A DNA stretch of 64,000 nucleotides from an uncultured Anaerolineales bacterium (lineage in GTDB: Bacteria > Chloroflexota > Anaerolineae > Anaerolineales > UBA6663). Position numbers and translations under genes: made by a program. Positions within the stretch are counted from its first letter, which is position 1. Every line of letters begins with the position of its first letter. Below, one piece after another: positions 1-64,000 of this stretch. The stretch is from positions 698 to 64,697 of the forward strand of contig CAYZRP010000024.1 in NCBI GenBank assembly GCA_964480865.1, in the 5' to 3' direction. A model generated the notes under the pieces. The model did not search any database. It worked only from the letters and a program-made list of their open reading frames with translations, and was not told where the DNA came from.

Positions 1-2130
1 ATCGTTATCTGGATGTTGGTAGGGGCGGTGATTGCCTGGGCGATCGAATGGTTCTTCTGGGATCGTCCCACCCGGGCTGCCATGACTCGCCAGTTTGAAC
101 AGGACCTCACGGCTTCGCGAAACGAAACCGAAAAACTGCGCGTGGATCTGCGTGACTCGCGTGATCGTTCGGCTCAACTCGAGCGCGAGGTCGGCGACGT
201 GCGGGCCGTCCTCAAAGCCGAAGCCGACGTCCGCGCGACGGCGGAAGCCAAGCTGCTCGCCAGCGACAAGAAATCCGTCGACCTGACAGCCGAGCTTGCG
301 CGCACCCGCTCCGAACTACAAACCGCGACGACGCGGGCGGCCATCATCCCCACGATCGAGCAATCGATGAGCGAGTGGGAGCAGAAGCATCGCGGCGAGG
401 CTGAGGCGCGCGCCGCGGCCGACGAGAAAAGCCTTGCCCTTTCGGCTGAGCTGGAGGCTTTGCGCGCCGAGCTCGCGCAGGCCACGCAGCAGGCGGCCCT
501 TGTGCCGAACCTGCAGGCGAGCGCGCTCGATTGGGAGGCCCGTTACCGCCAGGAACTGTCGAGCCGCGAGCAGGCCGAGGCCAAGACCGGCGAGGTTCAT
601 CTGCTGCTCGATCGATCTCGCGCCCAGATCGGCGATTGGGAAGCCCGCTTCAAGGCCGAGGCCAACGCCCGCGCGGCCGCCGAGGCTCGCGCCGGAAGCC
701 TGAGCCTCGAACTCGATCAACTGCGCAGCCAGACCGACGCGCTGCTCAAACAGCAGCAAGACGCCTTCTCCGCCGCCGATCAACAGGCCGGTGGGTTGAG
801 CACCGAGATCGACAAGCTGCGCGCGCAACTCGAGGCGCAGCTTCTGCAGTTCGAGGAGGAAACCGCGGCGCGACGTCAGGCCGAGGCCGAACTCGAGACG
901 ACCCGTGGCGAGCTGACGACCGTGCACGAGCGCGTCGCCGTGATCCCGACGCTGCAGGCCAGTGCCACCGACTGGGAGTCGAAGTACACGGCCGAAATCG
1001 CGAACCGCACGCGCTACCAGCAGGAGATCCAGTACTACGAGACGGAGCTGGCTCAACGCGGTGATCGCCTGAACGCCCTCGACGCCCAACACCGCCAGGC
1101 GCTCAGCGCCCAGGCCGCCGCCGAACAGCGGGCGGCCGAGTTGTCGACACAGGTGGAAGGCCTGCAGATTCAACTCAGCGAAGGCCAGGCCGGCGCCGAA
1201 ACGAGCCAGAAGGTTCGCGCAGAACTTGAACAGGAACGTGAGGCTTTGCGCGTGCAGGTCGGGTCATTGGAAGAGAAGGTATCGAGCGAGGCTACGTCTC
1301 GCGCATCCCTCGAGCAGCGCCTGCTTGCGCTCGAGCACGAGCGTGATGAGTTGCGCGCCCTGATCGAGGCTTCGAAGAGCCAGTTGGCGAGCGAGGCGAC
1401 GGCCCGCACCGCGGCCGATCAGCAGGCGGATAGTCTGCGCTCGGAGCTCGACAGGCTGCGGCTCGAGGTCGGCGGTCTTCACAACCGCGTCACCATGATC
1501 CCCACCCTCGAGAGCAATGTCTCTTCGTGGGAGCAGCGCTACCAGACCGAAGCTCAGCTGCGCACCCAACTCGACGGCACCGTGCGTGAGCGTGATACCG
1601 AGATCTCGACGCTGCGCGAGAGGATCGCGACGCTCGAGGCCGAGCACTCGACCCGCACCGCGGCGTTGCAGAGCCAACTCGAGTTGTTTGGCACACAGAC
1701 GAGAGCCGACAATCTTGAAGTCATCAATGGCATCGGCAAGGTCTTCGCACGCAAGCTCAACGACGCCGGCGTGATGACGTTCGACGATCTCGCGCGGATG
1801 CCCATCGAGCGGATCCGCGAGATCATCCAGCCGAAGGCGTGGCAGAAGATCGAGCCCGAGGCATGGGTCGCTGAAGCGGCGACACGGGCTGGCGGCAACC
1901 TGCGGGCTCCGGTGGCGGCGCCCATGCGGGTCGACAACCTGGAAGACATCAACGGCATCGGCGTGGTCTTCGCCGCCAGGCTCAACGCGGCCGGCATTGT
2001 GAACTTCGAGCAACTGGCCGCCCTGTCGCCGGAGCGCATCCGCGACATCCTCAATCCCGAAGAGTGGCAGAAGATCGAGCCTGAAGCCTGGGTCTCCGAA
2101 GCCGCCGAGTTCGCCCGTCGTGGGCAGTAA
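1..2130 (+). CDS. Membrane-anchored coiled-coil protein with two C-terminal helix-hairpin-helix modules (5' end probably outside window)
   Basis: ORF 13..2130, and the frame stays open back to nt 1. Hydrophobic N-terminus (LVGAVIAWAIEWFFW). Long Ala/Glu/Arg/Gln-rich region with about 5 copies of an (I/V)P(T/N)(I/L)..S...WE.(K/R)(H/Y/F) module. Duplicated C-terminal unit DNLE.INGIG.VFA..LN.AG..(T/N)F..LA...ERIR.I..P..WQKIEPEAWV.EAA (HhH-like). Confidence 0.75.
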   Translation: MVIWMLVGAVIAWAIEWFFWDRPTRAAMTRQFEQDLTASRNETEKLRVDLRDSRDRSAQLEREVGDVRAVLKAEADVRATAEAKLLASDKKSVDLTAELARTRSELQTATTRAAIIPTIEQSMSEWEQKHRGEAEARAAADEKSLALSAELEALRAELAQATQQAALVPNLQASALDWEARYRQELSSREQAEAKTGEVHLLLDRSRAQIGDWEARFKAEANARAAAEARAGSLSLELDQLRSQTDALLKQQQDAFSAADQQAGGLSTEIDKLRAQLEAQLLQFEEETAARRQAEAELETTRGELTTVHERVAVIPTLQASATDWESKYTAEIANRTRYQQEIQYYETELAQRGDRLNALDAQHRQALSAQAAAEQRAAELSTQVEGLQIQLSEGQAGAETSQKVRAELEQEREALRVQVGSLEEKVSSEATSRASLEQRLLALEHERDELRALIEASKSQLASEATARTAADQQADSLRSELDRLRLEVGGLHNRVTMIPTLESNVSSWEQRYQTEAQLRTQLDGTVRERDTEISTLRERIATLEAEHSTRTAALQSQLELFGTQTRADNLEVINGIGKVFARKLNDAGVMTFDDLARMPIERIREIIQPKAWQKIEPEAWVAEAATRAGGNLRAPVAAPMRVDNLEDINGIGVVFAARLNAAGIVNFEQLAALSPERIRDILNPEEWQKIEPEAWVSEAAEFARRGQ

Positions 2131-2141
2131 GGCGGTTCGAT

Positions 2142-3734
2142 ATGGCCGACCAACGTCGCACGAAGCGAACCACCCCCTTGAGTGGCGGTGGACGTCTCAC
2201 CAGGGAAGAGTGGCGCCGGTTCGACATCAGCAAGGCCTGGGTCTGGATCGGCCTGATCGTCCTGGCCATCATCCTGTTGCTCCTGCGCGGCTGCAACCCC
2301 CAGGTCGCCGGCACCGTTTCGACTCCGACAGCCGCGGCTGTGGCCACCGAGATCAAGCCGACTGACGTCGCGCCTACCGCGGTCGCGCCGACTGACGTCG
2401 CGCCGACTGATGTCGCTGCCCTCACGGCAACGACTGCGGCGCCCACGAACACGCCTGTGCCGGACGAGCCGCCGTCGGTCGATCCGCAGGATGGCGTGAT
2501 CCCGGGCGGGACCGTCGCGTTCGGTGGGACGGCCGCGCCAGGCGCCGAGGTCGACGTGCAGGTCGACGGCGTCTCGGTCGGCAAGGCGAAAGCCGACGCT
2601 CAGGGCCGTTGGACGCTGGACGTCGAACTCAAGGCTGGCGACCATGAGGTCGTGGTGGTCGGGCCGGATGGCTCCGCGAGCAAGCCCGAAAACTTCCAGA
2701 TTGGTTCGGGGGCTGTGCCGGATCCGGTCACGGTCAGCGAGCCCGCCGCGGGCGCTTCCGTTGCGCCTGGGCCGTTGACTTTGTCGGGCACCGCTGGCCC
2801 CGCAGCGGATCTCGTCGTGCTGGTGGATGGCAAAGAAGTCGGGCGCATTCAGGCGGACGCGCAAGGCGCATGGACGACTGACATCGATCTGCCTGAAGGC
2901 GCTCACAGCATTGTGGTCGCGCCGGCGTCGATGGACGGCACCGTGTTCAATGAAGCGGCCAGCGCCCCGCTTGATGTGACAGCTGAAGCACAGGGCGTCG
3001 CGCCGACGTTCACCGAACCCGAATCTCCCAACGGACTCGCGGTTGGTCCCGTGATCTTCCGCGGGACGGCCGCCCCCGGCTCGACAATCACGTTGAGCAT
3101 CGATGGCAAGGACGTGCGCACCGTCACGGCTGAAGACGATGGCTCCTGGTCGGCCCAGATCGATGTGCCGTCTGGAGACCATGACGTAGTGGCCACATCG
3201 GTTCAGCCCGACGGGCTCGAGGCCACGTCTGAGGCTTACGCGATCTCGGCGACGGCTGTCAAACCGACGATCACGTCGCCGATTGCGGGCAATGTCACGT
3301 CCGGCAACGTCGTGTTGCGTGGCACGGCTTCGCCGGGGCAGGATGTCGAGATCGTGGTTGATGGCACTGTCGTCGGCACGACGACGGCTGACGCGCGCGG
3401 CAACTGGTTCCTGTCGACGCCGCTGACGGCCGGGGCGCGCAGCGTGGTCGCGCGTTACGCAGGCTCGACGGCCGCCGGTGACTCGTCAGACGCTGTCGCA
3501 TACACCGTGCAGCAGCGCCGCGCTGGCGGGCAGTGCCGCAATACCACGCCGATCCCGGCCGAGGTCTCACGCTACACGGTCGAGGTCAACGACACCCTGT
3601 ACTGCATCTCGCAGCGCTCGGGCCTGTCGATCGCGGCGATCAAGCGCGACAACCCGTTCATCACCGACGAGAACCTGATCCTGCCGGGGCAGATCCTGAC
3701 GCTTCGCGAACATACGCCGCCGGCGGCGAAATAA
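2142..3734 (+). CDS. Membrane-anchored protein with about 5 bacterial Ig-like repeats and a C-terminal LysM domain
   Basis: N-terminal TM helix (WVWIGLIVLAIILLLL) and a PTDVA-type linker. Repeats of the form GTAAPG..V.V.VDG..VG...AD..G.W. C-terminal YTVEVNDTLYCISQRSGLSIAAIKRDNPFITDENLILPGQILTL matches the LysM consensus. Confidence 0.8.
   Translation: MADQRRTKRTTPLSGGGRLTREEWRRFDISKAWVWIGLIVLAIILLLLRGCNPQVAGTVSTPTAAAVATEIKPTDVAPTAVAPTDVAPTDVAALTATTAAPTNTPVPDEPPSVDPQDGVIPGGTVAFGGTAAPGAEVDVQVDGVSVGKAKADAQGRWTLDVELKAGDHEVVVVGPDGSASKPENFQIGSGAVPDPVTVSEPAAGASVAPGPLTLSGTAGPAADLVVLVDGKEVGRIQADAQGAWTTDIDLPEGAHSIVVAPASMDGTVFNEAASAPLDVTAEAQGVAPTFTEPESPNGLAVGPVIFRGTAAPGSTITLSIDGKDVRTVTAEDDGSWSAQIDVPSGDHDVVATSVQPDGLEATSEAYAISATAVKPTITSPIAGNVTSGNVVLRGTASPGQDVEIVVDGTVVGTTTADARGNWFLSTPLTAGARSVVARYAGSTAAGDSSDAVAYTVQQRRAGGQCRNTTPIPAEVSRYTVEVNDTLYCISQRSGLSIAAIKRDNPFITDENLILPGQILTLREHTPPAAK
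2358..2417 (+). repeat. 15-nt in-frame tandem repeat x4 (ccgactgacgtcgcg-like) encoding PTDVA/PTAVA linker
   Basis: Read directly: ccgactgacgtcgcg / cctaccgcggtcgcg / ccgactgacgtcgcg / ccgactgatgtcgct. Confidence 0.9.
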
Positions 3735-3789
3735 CAAGAGATCGGGGCACTCCCGACTTCTTTCCTCTGATCTCCTGTAGAATCCCGGC

Positions 3790-4476
3790 ATGTCCACCCC
3801 CTCCGATCAAGTCCAGGACGTTCTGCGAGACGCGTTGGCGCTCATCTCCCTCGGCAAGAAGATCGAGGCCGTCAAACTGCTGCAAAAGCGTTTCGGTCTC
3901 GGCCTCAAAGAGGCCAAGGAGATGGCCGACGGGCTCGAGCGTGGCAAGTCGACCGAATTCCAGGTCACTTTCCAGCCCACGATCGCGCTCACGAACGACC
4001 GTGAATCTGACGTGCGTCGACTTTTGACCGAAGGCAAAAAAATCGAAGCCATCAAGCTCATTCGCGAGATGACAGGCCTTGGCTTGAAGGAGGCCAAGGA
4101 CGCTGCCGAAGCCATGGAGGCCGGCCAGCCGTTCACGTTGCCCCAACGTCCTTCCCCTGCGTCGTCAGCCGAGCCGCTGGCCGAGACGGATTCCTGGATC
4201 GAGATCGATCGGTTGATGCGGTCGGGCAACAAGATCGGGGCCATCAAGCGCCACCGCGAGGCGTTCGGCACCGGCCTGGCCGAGGCCAAACAGGCCGTCG
4301 AAGTGCGCGCGGCGGGTCAGGCCATTCCACAGGCTCCGCGCCCGCCCCAAACTGAGGAGCCGCAGACCCTGGCGCAGCGATTGGGTATCCCCGGCGTCGT
4401 TGTAGGATTGGTCGGCGTGCTGATTGTCGTGACGATGTGCGCGCTGCTGTCGTATGCAGTCTGGAACGCCCTGTAG
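3790..4476 (+). CDS. Protein with three ribosomal L7/L12 C-terminal-domain-like modules and a C-terminal TM anchor
   Basis: Three repeats: [87 protein letters not shown]. They resemble the E. coli RplL segment [25 protein letters not shown]. C-terminal hydrophobic helix [27 protein letters not shown]. Confidence 0.7.
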   Translation: [228 protein letters not shown]

Positions 4477-4607
4477 GCGTCATTGGCTCAGGGGCGAGGA
4501 TAGCGCACACCAACGAGATATCGCGCCCTCTGCGCCTGGCTTTGACGCAGAAGTCTGTCGTAGACTCAGGTGATCGGTTCCCCGGGCGCGAGGTGCGTCG
4601 AGGAGGG

Positions 4608-5888
4608 ATGATGTCGCGGTCCCGCTGGTTCGGCCTGGCGAGCCTAACGATCTCGCTCGTTGTCTTTGCGCTCTGGCTTCAACCGATCGCCTCCGCCGAT
4701 GTCACCCGATCTGTCAAAAGACCCCAACCAGAGAGTGCAGCGGATGCCACGACGGCGCGCCGGGTGGCCTATGCGGATCTCGATTACCTTGGCGCCTTTC
4801 GGGCGCCCGAGGGTGACAATGTCGGCTGTAACTACGGCAACGGCGAGCACTGCTTTACTTACGGCGGACTCTTCGGCATCGGCCGGACGGGCGCCAGCCT
4901 GTACCTGCGCGGCCATGCCTGGGCCGGCGGCGTCGGCGAGGTCAGCGTCCCGGCGTCGCTGACCTTGAGTTCCACGGCCACCGTCCTGCAGGATATCCAC
5001 GACGTGGCCGACGGCGCCGAGGTCGACCCCGGCGAGGTCAACGGCCAGGGCCCGTTCGCGGGCCTTGTTTATGGTGGGCGTCTGATCGTCTCCGGCTCGA
5101 CCTACTACGATGCCGACGGCACGCAGGCCCTCACCCACGGCGTCTCGGGCCTCGATCTCTCGCTCCCCAACGACTTCGACGGCTGGTATCGCTTCAGCCC
5201 CGCGCTGGCCGCCAACCCGCGTTCGATCGGCGGCTACATGACGCCCATTCCGCTCGAGTGGCAGGCCCTGCTCGGCGGCACGGCCCTCACGGGCAACTGC
5301 TGCCTGTCGATCATCAGCAACAGCTCGGCCGGGCCGTCAGCCACGGTGTTCGATCCGGCGTCAGTCGGCGTGACGGATCCGCTCACCGGCACCACGGTGT
5401 TGCATTACCCGCTGGCCCATCCGCTCGAGCCCGAGACCACACAGAACGAGTACTTCAACCTGGCGACCCAGATCGAAGGCGTCGCGTTCCCGCCGGGCAC
5501 GCGCAGCGTCCTGTTCGTCGGCCGGCAGGGCACCGGCCCTTACTGCTACGGCGACGGCGCACCCTGCGGCGATGTCTGCGACGGATCGAAGGGCACGCAT
5601 GCCTATCCGTACCGCCACCAGATCTGGGCCTACGACGCGAATGATCTGCTGGCTGCCCGCTCTGGCGCGACCGCGGTATGGGCGATCCGGCCGTACGCGA
5701 TCTGGACCCTGACGGAGATGGATTCGGCGGGCTGCGCAGACATCTCAGGCGCGGCCTATGACCCGACCTCGGGCCGGCTGTACATCGCGGCCGGCTATGG
5801 CGATGAGCCGATCATCCACGTCTACGCGATCGCGGGCACTGCGACGCCGCTGGATCATCGTCTGACATTGCCGTCGCTGGCGCGCTGA
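4608..5888 (+). CDS. Secreted hypothetical protein (signal peptide)
   Basis: Start moved to the ATG at 4608, preceded by aggaggg. N-terminus MMSRSRWFGLASLTISLVVFALWLQPIASA looks like a signal peptide. No family recognised. Confidence 0.6.
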   Translation: MMSRSRWFGLASLTISLVVFALWLQPIASADVTRSVKRPQPESAADATTARRVAYADLDYLGAFRAPEGDNVGCNYGNGEHCFTYGGLFGIGRTGASLYLRGHAWAGGVGEVSVPASLTLSSTATVLQDIHDVADGAEVDPGEVNGQGPFAGLVYGGRLIVSGSTYYDADGTQALTHGVSGLDLSLPNDFDGWYRFSPALAANPRSIGGYMTPIPLEWQALLGGTALTGNCCLSIISNSSAGPSATVFDPASVGVTDPLTGTTVLHYPLAHPLEPETTQNEYFNLATQIEGVAFPPGTRSVLFVGRQGTGPYCYGDGAPCGDVCDGSKGTHAYPYRHQIWAYDANDLLAARSGATAVWAIRPYAIWTLTEMDSAGCADISGAAYDPTSGRLYIAAGYGDEPIIHVYAIAGTATPLDHRLTLPSLAR

Positions 5889-5951
5889 TCGGCATCAACG
5901 CGTCAGGGCCGCGCGTTGGCGGCCCTGACGAGGTTCGTGCAGAGCGAGGGC

Positions 5952-6962
5952 TCAGTTTGTAGACGTGACCGACAGATAGACCATCGTCTGATTCAGCAGC
6001 TGGTAAGCCACCTCGCCGAACGTGATCGGCCCTGTGAAGTGGCCGGTTTGCTTGCCCTCGAGCTTGGAGAACAAATAGTTGAGGATGCAGTTGCACGAGA
6101 ACGCGACAACGCCGTGGTCGGCTGTGGCGAGCGCTTCATTGAACTCGGCGACGTAATCGCTGACGGGTCGCGCCTGTCGGTACGACACACCCGAAAACAC
6201 GGGAGCGTAGAAGTTGACCCGACCGGTAGCTTCATCGACGCCCTGGAAGCTGATGTTGATCATCGCGCCCGCGTAGTCGGCCACCAACGGCAGTTGCAGG
6301 TTCAGGTCGCGCTCCTTGATGTAAGCGGCGAAGTTGCGACGCTCGCCGTTGACGAACACATCCCCGGCACTGAAGCCCGTCTCCGGAAATTCGAGGACGT
6401 CGCCCGGGCCCTGGCCGAACAGGTTGATGATGCCGATCTCGGCCACCTGATGATCGCGCAGTTGGACGTGCATCACGACCGCCGCGTTTTCCAGACACGC
6501 GCCGTTTCGTCCGTCGAACACCTTCGGCGTGACCTTCCCGAGATCTGCCAGATCGACACCCGAGATCCAGCCGATCAGCGGCCGCATGGCGAAGCCGTCG
6601 TATTCGGGCGCATGGACCGCGAACTCAAGATGCGCTGGGCTTGATGCCGGCAGGATCACGACTCCAAAGCCGTTCTCCGGGATGTCTGTGTAGAGGTTCG
6701 CGAGGTTGGCGGGGGCGTAGGTCTGGATCTCGACGCCGGCGATATCGGCGGGCAGTTCGGTCACGAACACGCCGTCATGCGAGAAGGTGCCGCCGCTGGC
6801 GGCCATGAAGTACGGGATCGTTCCACCGATCCATTGGCCCGTCGGCAGTTGAGACAGCAGGCGTTCGTCACCGGCCACCAGGAGCCGCCGGCCGTTGGCG
6901 ATCAGGTCCCTGGCTTCCTCAAGTGAAAGCAATGCCTGGGTGGAGAGGGTGGCGTCGGTCAT
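5952..6962 (-). CDS. FIST/NosP-like sensory-domain protein (stand-alone)
   Basis: Internal start MTDATL at 6962 (ATGA overlap with the upstream small ORF). C-terminal AFSCNCILNYL...GPITFGEVAYQLLNQTMVYLSV resembles the FIST_C end motif (C..R..., GEI, HNQT). Assigned from memory only. Confidence 0.5.
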   Translation of the reverse strand: MTDATLSTQALLSLEEARDLIANGRRLLVAGDERLLSQLPTGQWIGGTIPYFMAASGGTFSHDGVFVTELPADIAGVEIQTYAPANLANLYTDIPENGFGVVILPASSPAHLEFAVHAPEYDGFAMRPLIGWISGVDLADLGKVTPKVFDGRNGACLENAAVVMHVQLRDHQVAEIGIINLFGQGPGDVLEFPETGFSAGDVFVNGERRNFAAYIKERDLNLQLPLVADYAGAMINISFQGVDEATGRVNFYAPVFSGVSYRQARPVSDYVAEFNEALATADHGVVAFSCNCILNYLFSKLEGKQTGHFTGPITFGEVAYQLLNQTMVYLSVTSTN

Positions 6963-7204: not shown

Positions 7205-7582
7205 GGTTGACCTCCAGTTCGGCGAAAAGGCAATTGCGCTCAGTATGGACAAATCGAACCGGATTCCCATAAGTTCGCAGTGAATCCTCTTCGGTAATCT
7301 GTAGATTCATGCAGTTTTGGGTGGCGCTGCACCTCTGGCGCAACAGGTGGGACTGTCCAGGGATTAACGGCCGAAAAAATGCCACAACATCACGAAAGGT
7401 ATAAGCGCCTGCTGCCAGCGGCTCGCTCAAGCCGGCCCATGACTCGAGCCTTTGGAGGATTCTGAAAATCCGAACACTCGCTTCGCGCTTTCGGGATTGT
7501 TGATGGCAATCCCGGTCGTTATAATCCCGATCACGATATCAAGCTGAAACGGCCTGTTCGTTTCGCCTGTCAAGGAGTTCGC

Positions 7583-10336
<2,754 letters not shown>

Positions 10337-10357
10337 GGCGTCGGGCGTCGGGCGTCA
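10337..10357. repeat. Heptamer tandem GGCGTCG x3 immediately after the acnA stop
   Basis: ggcgtcg ggcgtcg ggcgtca, read directly. Confidence 0.85.
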
Positions 10358-10371
10358 GATGAGTCAGCGCA

Positions 10372-10494: not shown

Positions 10495-11076
10495 ATGCCG
10501 AACCCACTCAACGTCGTCCTCCTTGGCGCGCCATCGACCGGCAAGACCACGCTCGCCGAGCGCCTCGCAGCCGAGCACAATACCCTGTGGATGCCCGAAT
10601 ACGGTCGCGAGTATTGGGACATCCATCAGGTCGATCGACGCCTGACGCTCGAGCAGTTGGTCGAGATCGCTGAAGGTCATCTCGAACGCGAAGTCCAATT
10701 GCTCCAGCGCGTCTCGTGCTTTCTCTTCACCGACACCAACGCCCTGACGACCCGGCTCTTCTCCCTCTACTACCACAGCGCGGTTCATCCGCGCCTCGAG
10801 GAACTCGCCCGGCTCGCCGAACGCCGCTACGACGTCGTCCTGGTCTGCGACGCCGATATCCCCTACGACGACACCTGGGACCGCTCGGGCGACGTCCAAC
10901 GCCACGACTTTCAGGGCTGGGTCCTTGCCGATCTCGATGCGCGGCACATCTCGTATCACCTGCTTCGTGGCGATGTCGAGACACGCGTGCGGCAGGCCAA
11001 CCAGATACTTGTGAGCGGTCAGCTGTCAGCAATCAGCCCACGCTGCCGCGCAGAGAGCCAAAAAGCTGATCGCTGA
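10495..11076 (+). CDS. NadR-type AAA kinase (nicotinamide riboside kinase-like), single domain
   Basis: P-loop VVLLGAPSTGKTTLAERLA, then WMPEYGREYW and FTDTNALTT. Sits directly upstream of pnuC. Start moved to the ATG at 10495. Confidence 0.75.
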   Translation: MPNPLNVVLLGAPSTGKTTLAERLAAEHNTLWMPEYGREYWDIHQVDRRLTLEQLVEIAEGHLEREVQLLQRVSCFLFTDTNALTTRLFSLYYHSAVHPRLEELARLAERRYDVVLVCDADIPYDDTWDRSGDVQRHDFQGWVLADLDARHISYHLLRGDVETRVRQANQILVSGQLSAISPRCRAESQKADR

Positions 11077-11107
11077 CAACTGATCGCTGACCGCTAACCG
11101 CTTTCCC

Positions 11108-22759: not shown

Positions 22760-22763
22760 ATTC

Positions 22764-22841
22764 GTGGAGCGTAGAGCGAAGAGCGAGGAGCGAAAGGCGA
22801 GTGTCTATTCAACCTTCGTCATTCGTCCTTCGTCATTCGTC
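22764..22841. repeat. Composite heptamer-repeat element (GNNGAGC units, spacer, TTCGTCN units)
   Basis: gtggagc gtagagc gaagagc gaggagc gaaaggc gagtgtctattcaacc ttcgtca ttcgtcc ttcgtca ttcgtc. The two arms are not complementary to each other. Confidence 0.85.
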
Positions 22842-22853
22842 TGAAACAGAGTG

Positions 22854-33906: not shown

Positions 33907-33943
33907 GGAAGGATCATACACCGTGGAGTCGTAGGGGCAGGTT

Positions 33944-34010
33944 GACGAACGACGAAGGACGAATGACGAAGGTTGAACGGCCATTCAAGCTTCGTCATTC
34001 GTCCTTCGTC
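33944..34010. repeat. GACGAAN-heptamer hairpin element
   Basis: gacgaac gacgaag gacgaat gacgaag gttgaacggccattcaagc ttcgtca ttcgtcc ttcgtc. Lies between co-directional genes. Confidence 0.9.
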
Positions 34011-34014
34011 GGGC

Positions 34015-37507: not shown

Positions 37508-37522
37508 CGCGCCTGCGGCGCT

Positions 37523-37580
37523 GACGAACGACGAAGGACGAAGGTTGTCTCGCACAACCTTCGTCCTTCGTCGTTCGTCA
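37523..37580. repeat. GACGAAN-heptamer hairpin element (loop GGTTGT-CTCGC-ACAACC)
   Basis: gacgaac gacgaag gacgaag gttgtctcgcacaacc ttcgtcc ttcgtcg ttcgtc. The 43-nt core is identical to 61446..61488. Confidence 0.95.
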
Positions 37581-38168: not shown

Positions 38169-38226
38169 GACGAAAGACGAAGGTTGTGCTGACGACAACC
38201 TTCGTCTTCATCCTTCGTCATTCGTC
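38169..38226. repeat. GACGAAN-heptamer hairpin element
   Basis: gacgaaa gacgaag gttgtgctgacgacaacc ttcgtct tcatcc ttcgtca ttcgtc. Confidence 0.9.
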
Positions 38227-39631: not shown

Positions 39632-40882
39632 TCACGCCATTGCCTTCGGGAACCGCCACACCGCCAGCCCGAAGAACACCACGGCATACGCCATCAGCAC
39701 GCTGATCGGCAACCAGACCGACTCGAGCCCCTGGCCACGGATCACGATATTCTGCAGCCCGATCATGGCCCAGGTCGCTGGCAGCAACCTGCCGATGGTG
39801 GCGAAGGCCTGGCCCGCAAACTCGAGCGGGAACCAGGTGCCGCCCATCGCCGAGAAGATGAACATGGCCATCATCGAAAACAGCACGACCTGATCGTCGC
39901 TACGCGCCAGAACACCGATGAACAGGCCCATGCATGCGACCCACAGACCGAGCGCCATTGCGATCAGCAACGTCGCGCCGGCCTCGCGCAGGTAGTCGAC
40001 GCCCAGCAGCCCCTGGCCGAGCGCCACAAGCAACAACGTCTGCGCCAGAGTGATGACGAACATCGCGAGCATATGCCCGGCCACGACCTCCCACGCCGGC
40101 ATCGACGTGGTCAACAGACGCTGCAGCGTGCGTGTCTTGCGTTCCTGCACGAGGATCTGGGCTGACGCCACAAGCCCCATGATCGCGAACTGCACCAGGA
40201 TGCCCGGTGAGGCCTGGTTGTAGGGATTGCCACCGAAGGCAGCCTCAGGCTCAGGCGCCGTTGCGCGCTCGACGACGACGCGTTGCATACCCGACTGCCT
40301 GCCCCAGGCCGACCAGGCCGTCTCGAAGGCCGCTTCGGCGTTCGACTCAGGCATCAGGGCGACGCTCAACCGCGCAATCTCGCGAGCGCTGAGCAACTCG
40401 GTCAGCGTGATCTGCACGCCCCGATATAACGCCTGTGTGGATGCCGAAGCCGGGTCTGCCACCAGGGTCAGCGGCGCGGCAACGTCCCCGGTTCCGCTTT
40501 CGGTGGCAGCACCGAAGGTGGCAGCACCGAAGGTGGCACCACCGAAGGTGGCACCACCGAAGGTGGCAGGTACCGTCAATACCCCCAACACCTCCTTGGA
40601 CTCCAGTGCACGCCGCGCTTCGTCCGACTCCATACGCACCGCGTTGATCGTGCCCGACTCGCTCAATCTTTCGAAGAGCAGCCCGGCCATGGTCGACTCA
40701 GGCATCTCGGCCACCCAGGCCACCTTGAGTCGTGGATCCGTTTCAGCGCTGGGCTCGCCCCCGCGATAGGCAAGGCCCATGAACAGCGTGAACACGATCG
40801 GCATCGCCACAAGAAACAGCAAAGACTTCCGATCGCGCACGATCTGGTCGAGGTCCTTGAGCGCAAGAGTGAAGAGACGCAT
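39632..40882 (-). CDS. ABC-2 type permease with large extracytoplasmic loop
   Basis: N-terminal TM, an approximately 200-aa loop, then 5 TM. ALKDLDQIVRDRKSL start. Confidence 0.78.
   Translation of the reverse strand: MRLFTLALKDLDQIVRDRKSLLFLVAMPIVFTLFMGLAYRGGEPSAETDPRLKVAWVAEMPESTMAGLLFERLSESGTINAVRMESDEARRALESKEVLGVLTVPATFGGATFGGATFGAATFGAATESGTGDVAAPLTLVADPASASTQALYRGVQITLTELLSAREIARLSVALMPESNAEAAFETAWSAWGRQSGMQRVVVERATAPEPEAAFGGNPYNQASPGILVQFAIMGLVASAQILVQERKTRTLQRLLTTSMPAWEVVAGHMLAMFVITLAQTLLLVALGQGLLGVDYLREAGATLLIAMALGLWVACMGLFIGVLARSDDQVVLFSMMAMFIFSAMGGTWFPLEFAGQAFATIGRLLPATWAMIGLQNIVIRGQGLESVWLPISVLMAYAVVFFGLAVWRFPKAMA
40502..40570 (-). repeat. 15-nt in-frame tandem repeat x4.6 encoding ATFGG/ATFGA in the permease loop
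   Basis: ggtggcagcaccgaa x2, ggtggcaccaccgaa x2, ggtggcagg. The protein reads ATFGGATFGGATFGAATFGAAT. Confidence 0.95.
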
Positions 40883-42272: not shown

Positions 42273-42344
42273 GACGAATGGCGAAAGACGAATGACGAAG
42301 GTTGACAACCTGCCAGGCGAACTGTCGCTCCGGGCGACGACAGG
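42273..42344. repeat. Half GACGAAN element (left arm plus apex) followed by an unrelated hairpin
   Basis: gacgaat ggcgaaa gacgaat gacgaag gttgacaacc, then gaactgtcgc-tccgg-gcgacgacag. Confidence 0.75.
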
Positions 42345-53718: not shown

Positions 53719-53791
53719 GACGACGAACGACGAATGACGAAAGCTGCGTGAGACAACCTTCGTGTTCGTCATTCGTCGTTCGTCATTCGTC
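53719..53791. repeat. GACGAAN-heptamer hairpin element (inverted-loop variant)
   Basis: cagac gacgaac gacgaat gacgaaa gctgcgtgagacaacc ttcgtgt tcgtca ttcgtcg ttcgtca ttcgtc. Lies 15 nt upstream of the thiolase start. Confidence 0.9.
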
Positions 53792-53820
53792 AATCCCATA
53801 TTGTCTCGGTCGTCGTCGGC

Positions 53821-60625: not shown

Positions 60626-60877
60626 ATGCCCAAGAACGACGATAAGATCACCGTGGAGGGCCTCGTCGTTGAGGCCATGCCCAGCACGACGTTCCGTGTG
60701 CAGCTCGACAACGGACACGTCGTGCTTGCCTATCTCTCCGGTCGATTGCGCAAGAATTACATCCGCATTCTGCTTGGGGACCGTGTCAAGATCGAGCTGT
60801 CGCCCTACGACCTGACCCGCGGGCGCATTACGTATCGCTACACGGCGTCGCATTCACAGCAGCCGAACCCGGCTTAA
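60626..60877 (+). CDS. infA: Translation initiation factor IF-1 with 11-aa C-terminal extension
   Basis: [66 protein letters not shown] is canonical IF-1. aaggag RBS. Confidence 0.97.
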
Positions 60878-60896
60878 TTGAAGCGCCTATGGCGCT

Positions 60897-60945
60897 GACC
60901 GAAGGACGAAGGTTGTGCGAGACAACCTTCGTCCTTTTCGTTTCG
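60897..60945. repeat. GACGAAN-heptamer hairpin element, loop in the opposite orientation (GGTTGT-GCGAG-ACAACC)
   Basis: gaccgaag gacgaag gttgtgcgagacaacc ttcgtcc ttttcg tttcg. The apex is the reverse complement of the apex at 37537..37552 and 61460..61475. Confidence 0.9.
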
Positions 60946-61445
60946 CGACGAACGACACTCGTGCGCAAGGGCCACGACGAGCCTTGGCCGTGCCATTTCG
61001 CCATTGTCTATGTGGTCCAGAGCGACCGTCTCGCTCGTTACGCCTCCATCCAGGCGTGAACGGCTCCATGCGCCTGTCATCCAGAGCGTCTGGTCACGTT
61101 CGTCCGTAACCAACTGTCATGAGCGCGAGGGATGACACGCAATGCGCGGGTACACGGCGCTATTGAGAAGCGGAATGTGCCTGGTCGTCGATGGACGCGT
61201 GGGGTGGGGTCTCTGTACAGCAAACGCGCGACATGACGGACAGGGCGGCCCTCGTGGCCGCCCCTACGGTTGTGCAATTGATCGCCGCGCCTTTGGATGA
61301 ACCCGTCGGGCGGGCTATCGGGTTTCTCGCTGGCCGTTTGGGCTCCGCCCATCCTCTCTCTGGATGACACGCAACACCCGTGGGGGACGGCTCGACGCAG
61401 CACACGGTGGCTGCTTCCCTGTCCATGCGACTCTCCCGCCAGATA

Positions 61446-61507
61446 GACGAAGGACGAAGGTTGTCTCGCACAACCTTCGTCCTTCGTCTTTCGTCCTTCG
61501 TCGTTTT
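61446..61507. repeat. GACGAAN-heptamer hairpin element followed by TTTTT
   Basis: gacgaag gacgaag gttgtctcgcacaacc ttcgtcc ttcgtct ttcgtcc ttcgtcg ttttt. Abuts the prmA stop. Confidence 0.95.
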
Positions 61508-62422
61508 TCAGTCTACCGGCTTGCGGGCGATGATGGCCACCCAGTCGTCGATGTGCTCCTGGGCCGCAAACTCGAGACCGGCCGTCTTCAGCGCGGCGAT
61601 GACCTGATAGGCCTGCGTGTCGAGCACGCCCGAGAGCACGATCAGGCCGCCGGGTGCGACGAGCCGCGCCAGCCCCTTCTCGAACAAGTCCACAAGGATG
61701 TGCGCCAGGATGTTGGCCAGCACGAGCGGCGCCTGCGCCCCGGCTTCAACGAGCTCGGCCAGCGAGCCGCGCGCGATGCTGAGGTTGCCGGCCACCTGGT
61801 TGACCTCGGCGTTCTCGATGGCGGCGCGGACCGATTCGTCGTCGATGTCGTAGGCCCAGACGTGTTTGGCGCCGAGCTTGGCGGCCGCGATGGCCAGGAT
61901 GCCAGAGCCAGTGCCCAGGTCGATGACCTCTTGAGTCGACTTCAAATGCCGTTCGATCGCCATCAGGCACAGCTGCGTCGTCGGGTGGGTGCCGGTTCCG
62001 AAGGCCATGCCCGGGTCGAGCTTCACGACGACGTCGCCGGGCTGCGCTTCCTGCTCGAGCCAGGCTGGCACCACGAGCAGGCGCTTGCCGATGCGGATCG
62101 GCTTGTAGTTGGCCTTCCAGGATTCGCCCCAATTGGTCTCCGAGATCTCGCGCCAGGCCGGTTCCGGCAGCGTGCCGTCGAGGATCATGTTGAGGTGCGA
62201 GAGACCATCCTCGATGCTGCGGCGATTGGCGTTGGCCTGATCGTCCAGGGGCACATAGGCGCGCACGATCACGGGCCCGACGGGCACGCCGTGATCGGTC
62301 GGCGTCGCCTCGAACTTCAAGGCCTCGACGACCACGCCGCCTTCGGCGTAGCGCGCGAGCACTTCGGAAACGGATTCAGCGGCTTCGGGTGAAACGGTGA
62401 GGGAGATTTCGAGAAGGGTCAT
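61508..62422 (-). CDS. prmA: Ribosomal protein L11 methyltransferase
   Basis: Start MTLLEISLTV at 62422. VIDLGTGSGILAIAAAKLGA motif I. Typical PrmA N-terminal domain. Confidence 0.9.
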   Translation of the reverse strand: MTLLEISLTVSPEAAESVSEVLARYAEGGVVVEALKFEATPTDHGVPVGPVIVRAYVPLDDQANANRRSIEDGLSHLNMILDGTLPEPAWREISETNWGESWKANYKPIRIGKRLLVVPAWLEQEAQPGDVVVKLDPGMAFGTGTHPTTQLCLMAIERHLKSTQEVIDLGTGSGILAIAAAKLGAKHVWAYDIDDESVRAAIENAEVNQVAGNLSIARGSLAELVEAGAQAPLVLANILAHILVDLFEKGLARLVAPGGLIVLSGVLDTQAYQVIAALKTAGLEFAAQEHIDDWVAIIARKPVD

Positions 62423-62425
62423 GTC

Positions 62426-62506
62426 GTGGAGCGTGGAGCGTGGGGCGTAGAGCGAACGACCTTGCGCGGCAGCGGTCGCTTCACGCTCCACGCCCTACGC
62501 TCTACG
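62426..62506. repeat. GTGGAGC-heptamer hairpin element filling the dnaJ-prmA intergenic
   Basis: gtggagc gtggagc gtggggc gtagagc gaacgaccttgcgcggcagcggtcgc ttcac gctccac gccctac gctctac g. Includes the dnaJ stop and ends 3 nt from the prmA start. Confidence 0.92.
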
Positions 62507-63629
62507 ATTCGAGAATATCCTGCAGCCGCTCCAACAGCCCGTGCTCCAGCGGTTGGGCCTCGAGCGGGCTGGATTTGCGGAGCTCTTCGTAGAGCTTCTT
62601 CTGCTCTTTGGTGAGATCGGCCGGCGTGGCGACGTTGACGATGACGAACAGATCGCCCTTGCCGGAGCGTTGCGGCCGCGGCGCGCCCTTGCCGCGCAGT
62701 TGGAAGACGGTGCCCGACTGCGTGCCCGCGGGCACCTTCAACTTCTCGGGGCCGTAGGGCGTGGGCACGAGCACCTCAGCGCCCAGTGTTGCCTGGGCGA
62801 CGTTGATGCTCACCTCCACAAAGACCTGGTCCTCGCGGCGGCGGAAGTACTTGTGCGGGCTGACCGAGATGACGACGTACAGGTTGCCGATCGGGCCGCC
62901 GTTCGCGCCGGGCTCGCCTTCGCCCGACACGCGGATCTGCGTGCCGGTGTTGACGCCCGGCGGGATCGGGATGACGCGCTTGACGCTGCGGCGCAGCTGG
63001 CCTTTGCCACGGCAGGCGCGGCAGGGGCTCTGGATCACTTCGCCAGAACCGCCGCAGGTCGGGCACGACGAGACGTTGACCATCGAGCCCAGGAAGGTCT
63101 GGCGCACCTGACGCACCTCGCCGCTGCCCTTGCAGGTGTCGCAGCGCCTGGGCTGCGTGCCGGGTTCCGCGCCGCTGCCCTGACAGGTGTCGCAGGTCTC
63201 ATTGCGCGCGAACTCGATCTCCTGATCGACGCCGTGGATGGCCTGATCGAACGAGAGGGTCATGTCGTAGCGCAGGTCGGCGCCGCGCCGGGGCGCGCGT
63301 CGAGAGGAAGCGCCGCGGCCGCCACCGAACCCGCCGCCGAAGAACGTTTCGAAGATGTCTTCGACGCCGAAGCCGCCCGAGAAGTCAGAGGCGCCCATGC
63401 CGCCGCCGTTGACGCCGGCGTGTCCGAAGCGATCGTAGGCCGCGCGCTTCTGCTCGTCAGAGAGCACGGCGTAGGCCTCATTGATCTCCTTGAAGCGTTC
63501 GTCGGCCCCGGCCTCTTTATTGACGTCGGGATGATATTGCTTGGCGAGCTTGCGGAACGCCGACTTCAACTCGTCGCCGTTCGCGCTCTTGCCGACCCCG
63601 AGGGTCTCGTAGTAGTCGCGCTTTGACAT
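62502..63629 (-). CDS. dnaJ: Molecular chaperone DnaJ
   Basis: J-domain KRDYYETLGV...HPD. G/F region. Four CxxCxGxG zinc motifs. Confidence 0.97.
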   Translation of the reverse strand: MSKRDYYETLGVGKSANGDELKSAFRKLAKQYHPDVNKEAGADERFKEINEAYAVLSDEQKRAAYDRFGHAGVNGGGMGASDFSGGFGVEDIFETFFGGGFGGGRGASSRRAPRRGADLRYDMTLSFDQAIHGVDQEIEFARNETCDTCQGSGAEPGTQPRRCDTCKGSGEVRQVRQTFLGSMVNVSSCPTCGGSGEVIQSPCRACRGKGQLRRSVKRVIPIPPGVNTGTQIRVSGEGEPGANGGPIGNLYVVISVSPHKYFRRREDQVFVEVSINVAQATLGAEVLVPTPYGPEKLKVPAGTQSGTVFQLRGKGAPRPQRSGKGDLFVIVNVATPADLTKEQKKLYEELRKSSPLEAQPLEHGLLERLQDILES

Positions 63630-63639
63630 TGATCTGGTC

Positions 63640-63737
63640 GTGGACCGTGAAGCGTGGAGCGGAGAGCGATCACGCTACCGCGTCATGCCGCGATAGCGTG
63701 ATCGCTCCACGCTCTCCGCTCTACGCTTCACGCTTCC
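63640..63737. repeat. GTGGAGC-heptamer hairpin element filling the dnaK-dnaJ intergenic
   Basis: gtggacc gtgaagc gtggagc ggagagc gatcacgcta...tagcgtgatc gctccac gctctcc gctctac gcttcac gcttcc. Contains the dnaK stop (TGA). Confidence 0.92.
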
Positions 63738-64000
63738 TTGAACTGCCCGTCCACGACGTCGTCGCCGGAGGCACCGCCCGCGGGGCCTGAGCCGCCCGGA
63801 TCGCCAGCGCCGGCCTCGCCGCCTGGAGCACCGCCTTCAGGGCCGGACTGATACATGGCCGACCCGATCTTCTGGATCGACTGGTACAGGTCGTTGGTCG
63901 CACTCTGGATCGTGTCGACGTTGCCGCCCTCGAGCGCGCTGCGGACCGACGCGATCTTGCCCTCGACCTCGCTCTTGACGTCGGCCGGCACCTTGTCGCC
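63728..64000 (-). CDS. dnaK: Molecular chaperone DnaK, C-terminal end only (5' part outside window)
   Basis: Typical DnaK lid/tail: KSEVEGKIASVRSALEGGNVDTIQSATNDLYQSIQKIGSAMYQ, a Gly/Ala/Pro tail, then DDVVDGQFKEA. Immediately upstream of dnaJ. Confidence 0.88.
   Translation of the reverse strand, partial: GDKVPADVKSEVEGKIASVRSALEGGNVDTIQSATNDLYQSIQKIGSAMYQSGPEGGAPGGEAGAGDPGGSGPAGGASGDDVVDGQFKEA

Follow-up and report, generated by a model that had tools for sequence, protein, structure and literature searches.

The 64-kb window analysed here is a 64,000-nt stretch of contig CAYZRP010000024.1 from an uncultured Anaerolineales bacterium. On its minus strand it carries part of a heat-shock operon in the order dnaK (partial), dnaJ and prmA. 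The two spacers of this operon, the dnaK-dnaJ gap (K-J) and the dnaJ-prmA gap (J-P), are made of inverted tandem heptamers with the unit G-N-R-R-R-G-C, and each is predicted to fold into one long, very stable hairpin whose arms are built from these units. The genes, gaps and hairpin parts are as follows.

63728..64000 (-), 3' end of dnaK, a partial coding sequence from the list of open reading frames (ORFs), translation ...DDVVDGQFKEA*; the stop codon is TGA at 63730..63728 (-) and the C-terminus is kept in relatives
63630..63727, K-J gap, 98 nt
63704..63731 (-), purine-rich 5' arm of the K-J hairpin, GTGAAGC GTAGAGC GGAGAGC GTGGAGC; contains the dnaK TGA, and its last unit is bulged in the minimum-free-energy (MFE) structure
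63668..63703 (-), non-periodic palindromic core of the K-J hairpin, 36 nt with 15 bp and a 6-nt loop; anchors the pairing register
63640..63667 (-), pyrimidine-rich 3' arm of the K-J hairpin, GCTCTCC GCTCCAC GCTTCAC GGTCCAC; ends 10 nt before the dnaJ ATG
62502..63629 (-), dnaJ, 375 aa; ATG at 63629, TAG at 62504..62502; Pfam DnaJ, DnaJ_C and DnaJ_CXXCXGXG
62423..62501, J-P gap, 79 nt
62478..62505 (-), 5' arm of the J-P hairpin, GTAGAGC GTAGGGC GTGGAGC GTGAAGC; contains the dnaJ TAG
62454..62477 (-), core and loop of the J-P hairpin, 24 nt; shares homology with the J-P loop of the relative L207
62426..62453 (-), 3' arm of the J-P hairpin, GCTCTAC GCCCCAC GCTCCAC GCTCCAC; 1-3 nt separate the stem base from the prmA ATG
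61508..62422 (-), prmA, 304 aa; ATG at 62422..62420; Pfam PrmA at 2.4e-81 from residue 4

An original prediction, made from the letters of this DNA, had described both gaps as inverted tandem heptamers. That description stands, with coordinates shifted slightly to 63630-63727 and 62423-62501. An assembly artefact is ruled out, since six independent assemblies, 99.4-100% identical to the window, carry exactly the same two spacers; among these near-identical strains, no copy-number polymorphism was found in either spacer. In an overlapping assembly (L081), dnaK extends to an HSP70 gene. Several short-read contigs of other assemblies end inside heptamer arrays, as expected for dispersed repeats.

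The start codons of dnaJ and prmA are both correct. DnaJ begins with MSKRDYYETLGV, the Pfam match of PrmA begins at residue 4, and an identical 304-aa prmA call is made in other assemblies. With starts this well supported there is no room for a concealed ribosome-binding site, and a mis-called start, which had been named as a possible refutation, is not borne out. No GGAG, GAGG or AGGA motif was found upstream of dnaJ or prmA, in agreement with the earlier claim that neither gene has a recognisable Shine-Dalgarno (SD) sequence. The missing SD was considered as a special trait of the two genes and rejected, because an SD-like motif is present in just 19 of the 52 window genes (~37%). A contrast within the operon still stands: dnaK and grpE carry a GAGGA/AGGAG SD in all relatives, whereas dnaJ and prmA never do. 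The repeat units were also considered as functional carriers of an SD-like GGAG, and this cannot be general, as other unit families are without GGAG. The closeness of the prmA ATG to the stem base had been noticed before. The distance of 10 nt given for the dnaJ ATG is true of the last degenerate K-J unit, and the main stem is 17 nt away.

As had been proposed, the two stop codons fall within repeat units, and they are also part of the stems. The accompanying idea that the repeats supply the stops fails: the C-termini ...FKEA* (DnaK) and ...ILES* (DnaJ) are kept in relatives with unrelated spacers, so both stops are native and the repeats abut them in phase. The K-J array is in phase with, and resembles, the conserved last dnaK codons GAA GCG T(GA/AA) (window 63728-63740 and the dnaK 3' ends of L215, L207, L209 and L001). 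A local duplication of the dnaK end may have seeded the K-J heptamer array.

Folding, heat control and termination at the two gaps

On the sense strand the K-J hairpin has an MFE of -71 kcal/mol (z -9.5) and the J-P hairpin one of -51.8 kcal/mol (z -5.7), and in each case none of 200 dinucleotide shuffles folds as well. The K-J arms are asymmetric by one unit, as originally described; the unmatched unit forms a 7-nt bulge, GUGGAGC, on the mRNA. The K-J core starts with GATCACGCTATCG, which is common to the window and the relative L215. Register-shifted pairings, which the periodic arms had been said to permit, do exist and are poor. They cost 8.6 kcal/mol in J-P and 25.6 kcal/mol in K-J because the non-periodic cores anchor the register, and at this cost they were set aside as negligible at equilibrium.

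The original prediction had listed RNA thermometers first among the possible roles; in this role heat-shock temperature would open the hairpins and give ribosomes access to dnaJ and prmA. The location in a heat-shock operon fits this role, and the start regions are partly occluded. At -52 to -71 kcal/mol, however, both hairpins are predicted to remain folded up to 85-95 °C in a temperature scan, and the accessibility of the -15..+3 start region rises gradually between 25 and 75 °C, from 0.51 to 0.64 for dnaJ and from 0.33 to 0.62 for prmA, with no switch. No SD is sequestered that could be unmasked, and the identical architecture occurs in non-stress operons. A search of the whole window at the Rfam gathering score gives no family match, thermometer families included; at E<=1, the 60800-64000 region yields only sub-threshold generic hairpins of the miRNA-precursor type. 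Known thermometers (ROSE, fourU, cyanobacterial hsp17) also place a hairpin near a start in a heat-shock gene context. Unlike the stems here, which are SD-less and predicted to melt above 85 °C, they are short, imperfect and SD-containing and melt at 30-45 °C.

Temperature control of transcription has another candidate. The relatives have the gene order hrcA-grpE-dnaK-dnaJ-prmA, the same as in the Bacillus dnaK operon (PMC12341298). L207 (6152-6178), L209, L213 and L216 have a perfect controlling inverted repeat of chaperone expression (CIRCE; TTAGCACTC-N9-GAGTGCTAA) 12-13 nt before hrcA, and L214 has a CIRCE with one mismatch 14 nt upstream of hrcA. Transcriptional heat control in close relatives is thus the canonical HrcA/CIRCE system. 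Neither gap element has any likeness to CIRCE. From the modelled melting, the gradual accessibility, the missing SD and Rfam matches and the CIRCE of relatives, we conclude that the hairpins are most probably not temperature sensors, and we regard an RNA thermometer at either gap as barely credible.

A scan for intrinsic terminators and promoter-like sites finds none at either gap. The tails after the two stems are GGUCCACGACC and GACAUGACC, with no U-tract, and no U-tract follows the K-J or J-P stems of the relatives. T-runs are present after the operon-end hairpins of L209 and L211 and after the window's infA hairpin. By these features the two hairpins do not appear to be canonical terminators, and the gaps appear to contain no internal promoters.

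The hairpins could also be U-tract-independent partial terminators or pause sites that lower read-through into dnaJ and prmA, with no part in RNA stability or translation. The stems are very GC-rich and directly follow stop codons. An ordinary hairpin is the usual content of the K-J gap in other Anaerolineae, sometimes with a few T residues after it (this is so in L211 too), and members of another heptamer family in the window (family 1, below) sit at true terminator positions after infA and prmA. We nevertheless consider attenuation of this kind improbable. The K-J and J-P stems lack the U-tract that the operon-end hairpins of the same genomes have, no promoter-like site downstream could restart transcription of dnaJ or prmA, and a ribosome terminating within the stem would block stem formation during coupled transcription and translation.

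The junction hairpins in related Anaerolineales

The window DnaJ is nearest to Anaerolineales genomes, and the best species-level genome is merely 67% identical. Closer relatives were obtained via protein clusters. They comprise eight loci, with DnaJ protein identities to the window of 97% (L207), 93% (L211), 92% (L209), 90% (L215), 86% (L212), 77% (L213), 73% (L214) and 73% (L216).

A comparison with the spacers of relatives, which had been proposed as a check, finds a hairpin far more stable than shuffles in 15/15 available K-J and J-P gaps of the eight loci (z -3.2 to -12.1). The stems begin 0-7 nt past the stop codon and finish 1-20 nt before the next start. Their sequences differ. At K-J, the window and L215 have a common family-2 (G-N-R-R-R-G-C) element including the 3' flank, in which a pair of units has changed on both sides, from GTAGAGC:GCTCTAC to GGAGAGC:GCTCTCC. 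The K-J units are GAAGGGC/GAGGAGC in L207 and AGAGGGA in L209, and L211, L213, L214 and L216 have plain GC-rich stems that are not heptameric. At J-P, the units are GCGTCAG in L207, L211, L212 and L215, AGGGAGG in L209 and family 2 in the window. The distant loci L001 and L014 have the same gaps filled by heptamer arrays of yet other units.

Pairing is retained through these changes. In the K-J alignment (4 sequences) 91% of cells pair and 10/24 pairs are changed on both sides, a count reached by 0/500 shuffles and compared with 1-4 in slid controls. In the J-P alignment (5 sequences) 88% of cells pair and 10/28 pairs are changed on both sides, again with 0/500 shuffles reaching this and slid controls at 0-4. 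The alignments are small and the consensus structure was derived from the same sequences, which makes these counts supportive, not conclusive.

The loops point to exchange between copies. The window J-P loop is homologous to the J-P loop of L207 despite a different arm family, and the same window loop (62454-62477, plus strand GCGCGGCAGCGGTCGC), read in inverted orientation, matches the K-J loop of L207 (L207 9940-9965) at 15/16 positions. The inverted match suggests exchange between K-J and J-P elements. With dnaJ DNA identities among the compared strains at 84-93%, replacement or conversion of the arms outpaces the divergence of the flanking genes by far. Because all 15 gaps fold stably while arm sequences differ and compensatory changes accumulate, the hairpin is the conserved feature, and the heptamer arms are fast-evolving material that is probably renewed by compensated substitution and by exchange between copies.

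In most other Anaerolineae the dnaJ-prmA junction measures -8 to +3 nt, with overlapping or abutting codons. The J-P hairpin is therefore an insertion into an ancestrally coupled junction. In L207, the closest relative, the hrcA-grpE gap (7280-7414) holds a family-1 heptamer hairpin too; the window does not extend to its own hrcA-grpE region.

Heptamer elements across the window

Tandem arrays were found by Tandem Repeats Finder (TRF) plus a custom scan. The window contains 14 period-7 arrays of at least 3 units, compared with 0.40 +/- 0.58 in second-order Markov simulations, a ~35-fold excess; period 8 has one array and period 9 none. The units are of several kinds (GACGAAN, GNRRRGC, TGGTTAT, GCTGACN and GGCGTCG). 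The family-2 pattern has 17 matches where 6.8 +/- 2.8 are expected, of which the 11 with at most 2 mismatches all fall within three elements: the K-J gap, the J-P gap and, at 22763-22842, one arm (the left) of a hybrid. Family 1, with GACGAAN arms often set around a GGTTGT-N5-ACAACC loop, occurs at 8 or more sites, and its pattern has 33 matches in the window where 3.1 are expected.

At least 13 heptamer elements occur in the window. Co-directional gaps hold 10 of them and convergent gaps 3, and the 7 divergent gaps have none (0/7). By the tally used for the repeat-class comparison, 12/13 listed elements are intergenic. Among relatives, heptamer elements were flagged in 0 of 7 more divergent gaps. 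The elements often occupy 66-100% of their gap. The flanking genes are functionally unrelated and include ABC-2 permeases with an ATPase, a response regulator, an M20 peptidase, a thiolase operon and a nicotinamide mononucleotide (NMN) transporter. Far from being confined to the heat-shock operon, the elements belong to a dispersed, genome-wide class of intergenic repeat hairpins. The specificity implied by the original prediction is contradicted by the same kind of element in ABC transporter, two-component and thiolase operons. The elements outside K-J and J-P are the following, with (.) for those given no strand.

61446..61505 (.), family-1 hairpin with GACGAAG units and a GGTTGT-N5-ACAACC loop, directly 3' of prmA at the operon end; short-read contigs of other assemblies break inside it
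60897..60940 (.), terminator-like family-1 hairpin on the 3' side of infA, with a T-rich tail after it
22763..22842 (+), hybrid element occupying the spacer of two ABC-2 permease genes in full; left arm GTGGAGC GTAGAGC GAAGAGC GAGGAGC (family 2-like), right arm TTCGTCN (family 1)
33943..34011 (-), family-1 hairpin in the co-directional gap between a small ORF and a response-regulator gene
37522..37580 (.), family-1 hairpin with a perfect 27-bp stem, in a convergent gap
53719..53795 (-), family-1 hairpin between two genes of an operon for thiolase and acyl carrier protein (ACP)-synthase-III-like proteins; the orthologous gap has different units in L207 and is just 35 nt in L211
40901..40950 (-), heptamer hairpin of another unit (TGGTTAT / CCAATAA) between two ABC-2 permease genes
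38180..38226 (-), partial family-1 element in a co-directional gap, made up of TTCGTC units and a short hairpin
42273..42310 (-), partial family-1 array that separates the ABC ATPase gene from the permease gene

The arms have a fixed polarity. At loci that were not chosen by a search pattern, 8/8 detected 5' arms are G-/purine-rich and 6/6 3' arms are C-/pyrimidine-rich; over all loci, 17/19 5' arms are G-/purine-rich, and the topology with the C-arm first is almost never seen. The polarity holds on both strands because the elements are palindromic. As a result, stop triplets (TGA, TAG) are possible only in the arm that follows the upstream gene, and the arm adjoining the downstream start is without start and SD-like triplets.

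The loop GGTTGT-CTCGC-ACAACC of family 1 is found in both orientations (CTCGC, GCGAG), at 37543, 60911 and 61459, as would be expected if the loop flips via recombination between inverted arms. The 630 nt between the convergent infA and prmA genes (60878-61507) contain no convincing ORF and are bounded by two family-1 hairpins. Direct GCTGACN heptamers at 11040-11102 fill a 31-nt gap and end 6 nt before the SD-less start of the NMN-transporter gene. A (GCGGTCN)x4 array at 8868-8897 lies inside the aconitase ORF (7583-10336), where it encodes part of a linker; no other gene was found to contain a heptamer array. The aconitase stop is followed at once by a (GGCGTCG)x3 array (10336-10358), whose unit is close to the GCGTCAG units of the J-P arms of L207, L211, L212 and L215.

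Two further observations concern the coding sequences of the window. A 15-nt tandem repeat, GGTGGCAGCACCGAA, with 4.5 copies and 96% matches, lies at 40502-40569 inside an ABC-2 permease ORF (39632-40882) and encodes an in-frame 5-residue repeat. A 228-aa ORF (3790-4476) partially matches the C-terminal domain of ribosomal protein L7/L12 (residues 82-109 only), in an unusual context. A tRNA/tmRNA scan of the window found none.

Such units also recur in metagenomic contigs of widely differing GC content. A scan for GTGGAGCGTGGAGCG found tandem arrays of the unit in 54/80 contigs, with GC contents of 0.43-0.71. Hairpins of this design account for 13/83 matches, and in several cases a stop codon and an ATG flank the hairpin. 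Positions 1-6662 of one metagenomic contig, L087 (Ga0163179_10008697), consist almost wholly of heptamer arrays of over 50 kinds, often in inverted pairs, which is an extreme density for this type of repeat.

This recurrence of the units in differing contigs could mean that the arrays bind protein, with the 7-nt period reflecting one unit per monomer of a cold-shock-domain, S1-like or other DNA-binding factor and the hairpin being secondary. The heptamer period has no obvious thermodynamic reason, and one GUGGAGC unit is exposed as the K-J bulge. CspB binds heptamer repeats with one protein per unit, and partners of the cyanobacterial and Beggiatoaceae heptamers have been postulated, not found (PMC4679880; bioRxiv 10.1101/2022.06.06.494920). 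The units at the same junction, however, differ completely between close relatives, some stems are not periodic at all, and the window alone has at least three or four unrelated units. As the units differ at the same junction, a sequence-specific binder cannot be what is conserved at these two sites, and we think such an array quite unlikely.

A proposed role for the junction hairpins and their relation to known systems

We lean towards a role as intercistronic mRNA hairpins that stabilise or process the transcript and couple translation, with no sensing of temperature, and hold this to be somewhat more probable than its opposite. Each hairpin would be a 3'-exonuclease barrier and/or a processing site for a double-strand-specific (RNase III-type) enzyme in the polycistronic mRNA, and the dnaK segment would accumulate above the dnaJ and prmA segments and outlast them. 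With the stop codon within the stem, a ribosome terminating on the upstream cistron would have to open the outer 7-11 bp, and this opening would free the pyrimidine-rich 3' arm beside the next AUG. Translation of dnaJ and prmA would be kept low and coupled to the upstream cistron. The argument for coupling comes from the SD-less start at the opposite base of a stem that contains the stop. The helix may set the stop and the next start side by side, preserving the coupling that most Anaerolineae would obtain from overlapping dnaJ/prmA codons. The earlier suggestion of a processing site or attenuator that sets the DnaK:DnaJ:PrmA ratio is, as far as sequences can tell, consistent with the data.

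Precedents exist for such a role. In the Bacillus dnaK operon, mRNA processing and differential segment stability are described in the secondary accounts of PMC3446304 and PMC12341298, both citing Homuth et al. 1999, and in Clostridium stem-loops set operon stoichiometry (PMC4423207, PMC8219983). The B. subtilis dnaK operon and the Clostridium cip-cel operon resemble the locus described here in having stem-loops without a U-tract between cistrons of unequal stoichiometry (PMC3446304, PMC12341298, PMC4423207, PMC8219983). The window shares with them a stable stem of at least ~20 bp between cistrons at a conserved position. The likeness is a functional analogy only, since the processing stem-loops of B. 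subtilis, Clostridium and phage T7 are unique sequences, unlike the repeat family found here. The T7 stem-loops are intercistronic processing sites cut by RNase III.

Several points weigh against this role. For the J-P hairpin, the antisense strand gives the more stable fold (-58.3 vs -51.8 kcal/mol for the mRNA strand). Across the alignments, G.U cells on the sense strand (18) are not in significant excess over A.C cells (12), so RNA-level selection cannot be told apart from maintenance of arm complementarity by a DNA-level process. Most Anaerolineae are without any dnaJ-prmA spacer, and the orthologue of the window element at 53719..53795 is absent in L211, which makes some copies dispensable. 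A hairpin that begins at the stop might also impede termination on the highly expressed dnaK.

The DNA-level process just mentioned is possible and may go along with a neutral origin. The repeats could be neutral or selfish by-products of heptamer slippage, ectopic recombination or a mobile mechanism, building up in any intergenic DNA that can bear them, with no selected role in the dnaK operon. Heptamer excess has been ascribed to polymerase slippage, in the account that PMC4692102 gives in citing Mrazek 2007. A neutral origin would also suit the genome-wide unit families inside which assemblies break, the arms replaced between strains with 87-93% dnaJ identity, the loop modules common to different junctions in both orientations, the loss of one element from L211, the spacer-less junction of most Anaerolineae and the missing wobble asymmetry in favour of the mRNA strand. 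It does not readily explain a stable hairpin at both junctions in eight relatives, including non-heptameric stems, pairing that survives many double substitutions, or the strict arm polarity. Promoter-bearing divergent gaps are avoided (0/7 in the window and none flagged in 7 more of relatives), and no transposase, including RAYT/Y1_Tnp, is found among the 50 window proteins. A purely neutral origin is in our judgement unlikely, though it carries appreciable weight.

Intergenic heptanucleotide repeats are known from other bacteria: the short tandemly repeated repetitive (STRR) sequences of Calothrix and Nostoc, Nostoc GGGGAYT, Xanthomonas GGGAATC and the (GATAGRA)n satellites of Chloroflexus aurantiacus (PMC4692102, PMC6749651). 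The elements described here resemble the STRR type in that tandem 7-nt units are over-represented in intergenic DNA with several families per genome, a given gap has different units in related genomes, and some STRR-type copies are inverted (PMC4692102, PMC6749651). In the window, the tandem 7-nt excess is intergenic, dispersed and made up of several unit families. The lineage and the units are different; the unit sequences of STRR1-3 of heterocystous cyanobacteria are not matched by window units. The inverted hairpin form with a purine/G-rich 5' arm is the rule here, and the elements fit exactly between stop and next start, with the junction hairpin kept while its arms turn over. Unlike the Xanthomonas and Nostoc heptamers, the units here cannot form G-quadruplexes of the kind studied there.

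The Beggiatoaceae TAACTGA and Nostoc heptamers lie close to SD-less starts of unrelated genes, essential genes among them, and have been proposed to act in translation (PMC4679880; bioRxiv 10.1101/2022.06.06.494920). The arrays of the window likewise end a few nt before SD-less start codons. Those heptamers, however, are direct and predicted to be unstructured, whereas here an inverted pair forms a hairpin with its 5' arm starting from the upstream stop. The window has one direct-only array akin to Beggiatoaceae TAACTGA, at 11040-11102.

The repetitive extragenic palindromic (REP) elements of enterobacteria and pseudomonads are a further comparison. From the malEFG literature, REP elements stabilise upstream mRNA segments and set cistron ratios. 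Like REP elements and bacterial interspersed mosaic elements (BIME), the elements of the window are dispersed, transcribed extragenic palindromes in co-directional or convergent gaps, not promoter gaps, and are often intercistronic in transporter operons (PMC12306157). They are also multi-copy, with at least 8 sites of family 1 and three of family 2 in 64 kb. Their stems consist of tandem heptamers, which those of REP elements do not, and at 27-35 bp are much longer. GTAG, part of the REP GTAG/CGTC tag, occurs in some units (GTAGAGC) and at the outer J-P end with no fixed position and is absent from family 1; no GTAG/CGTC tag was seen at a fixed end, and no REP-associated tyrosine transposase (RAYT) was found among 50 proteins of the 64-kb window. 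By their sequence features these elements are not demonstrably REP elements.

The over-representation of heptamers in bacterial intergenic DNA is already known. For Chloroflexi, we found such elements described in the literature only as the satellite-catalogue entry for Chloroflexus aurantiacus. What appears to be new is the consistent hairpin arrangement of fixed polarity, the exact stop-to-start fit and the conserved junction hairpin with turnover of its arms. We speculate that the hairpins are more than passive debris of slippage and that an active lineage-wide process, such as gene conversion (ectopic or templated by the hairpin), perhaps aided by a factor that recognises the 7-nt period, builds and renews intercistronic hairpins of fixed polarity (G/purine arm 5', C/pyrimidine arm 3'). 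By bringing a stop codon next to the following SD-less start, these would provide general long-range translational coupling and cistron-ratio setting in Chloroflexota. We hold this broader proposal to be rather unlikely.

Heptanucleotide repeats in bacterial intergenic DNA have been known since about 1990 and are statistically in excess in many genomes. On the practical side, they break short-read assemblies of Chloroflexota genomes. The locus described here is a compact comparative system, one essential and conserved operon followed across graded relatives. It makes it testable whether structure or the 7-nt unit is selected and why arm polarity is fixed, and whether intercistronic hairpins may set chaperone stoichiometry (DnaK >> DnaJ) in these bacteria through RNA stability and coupled translation.

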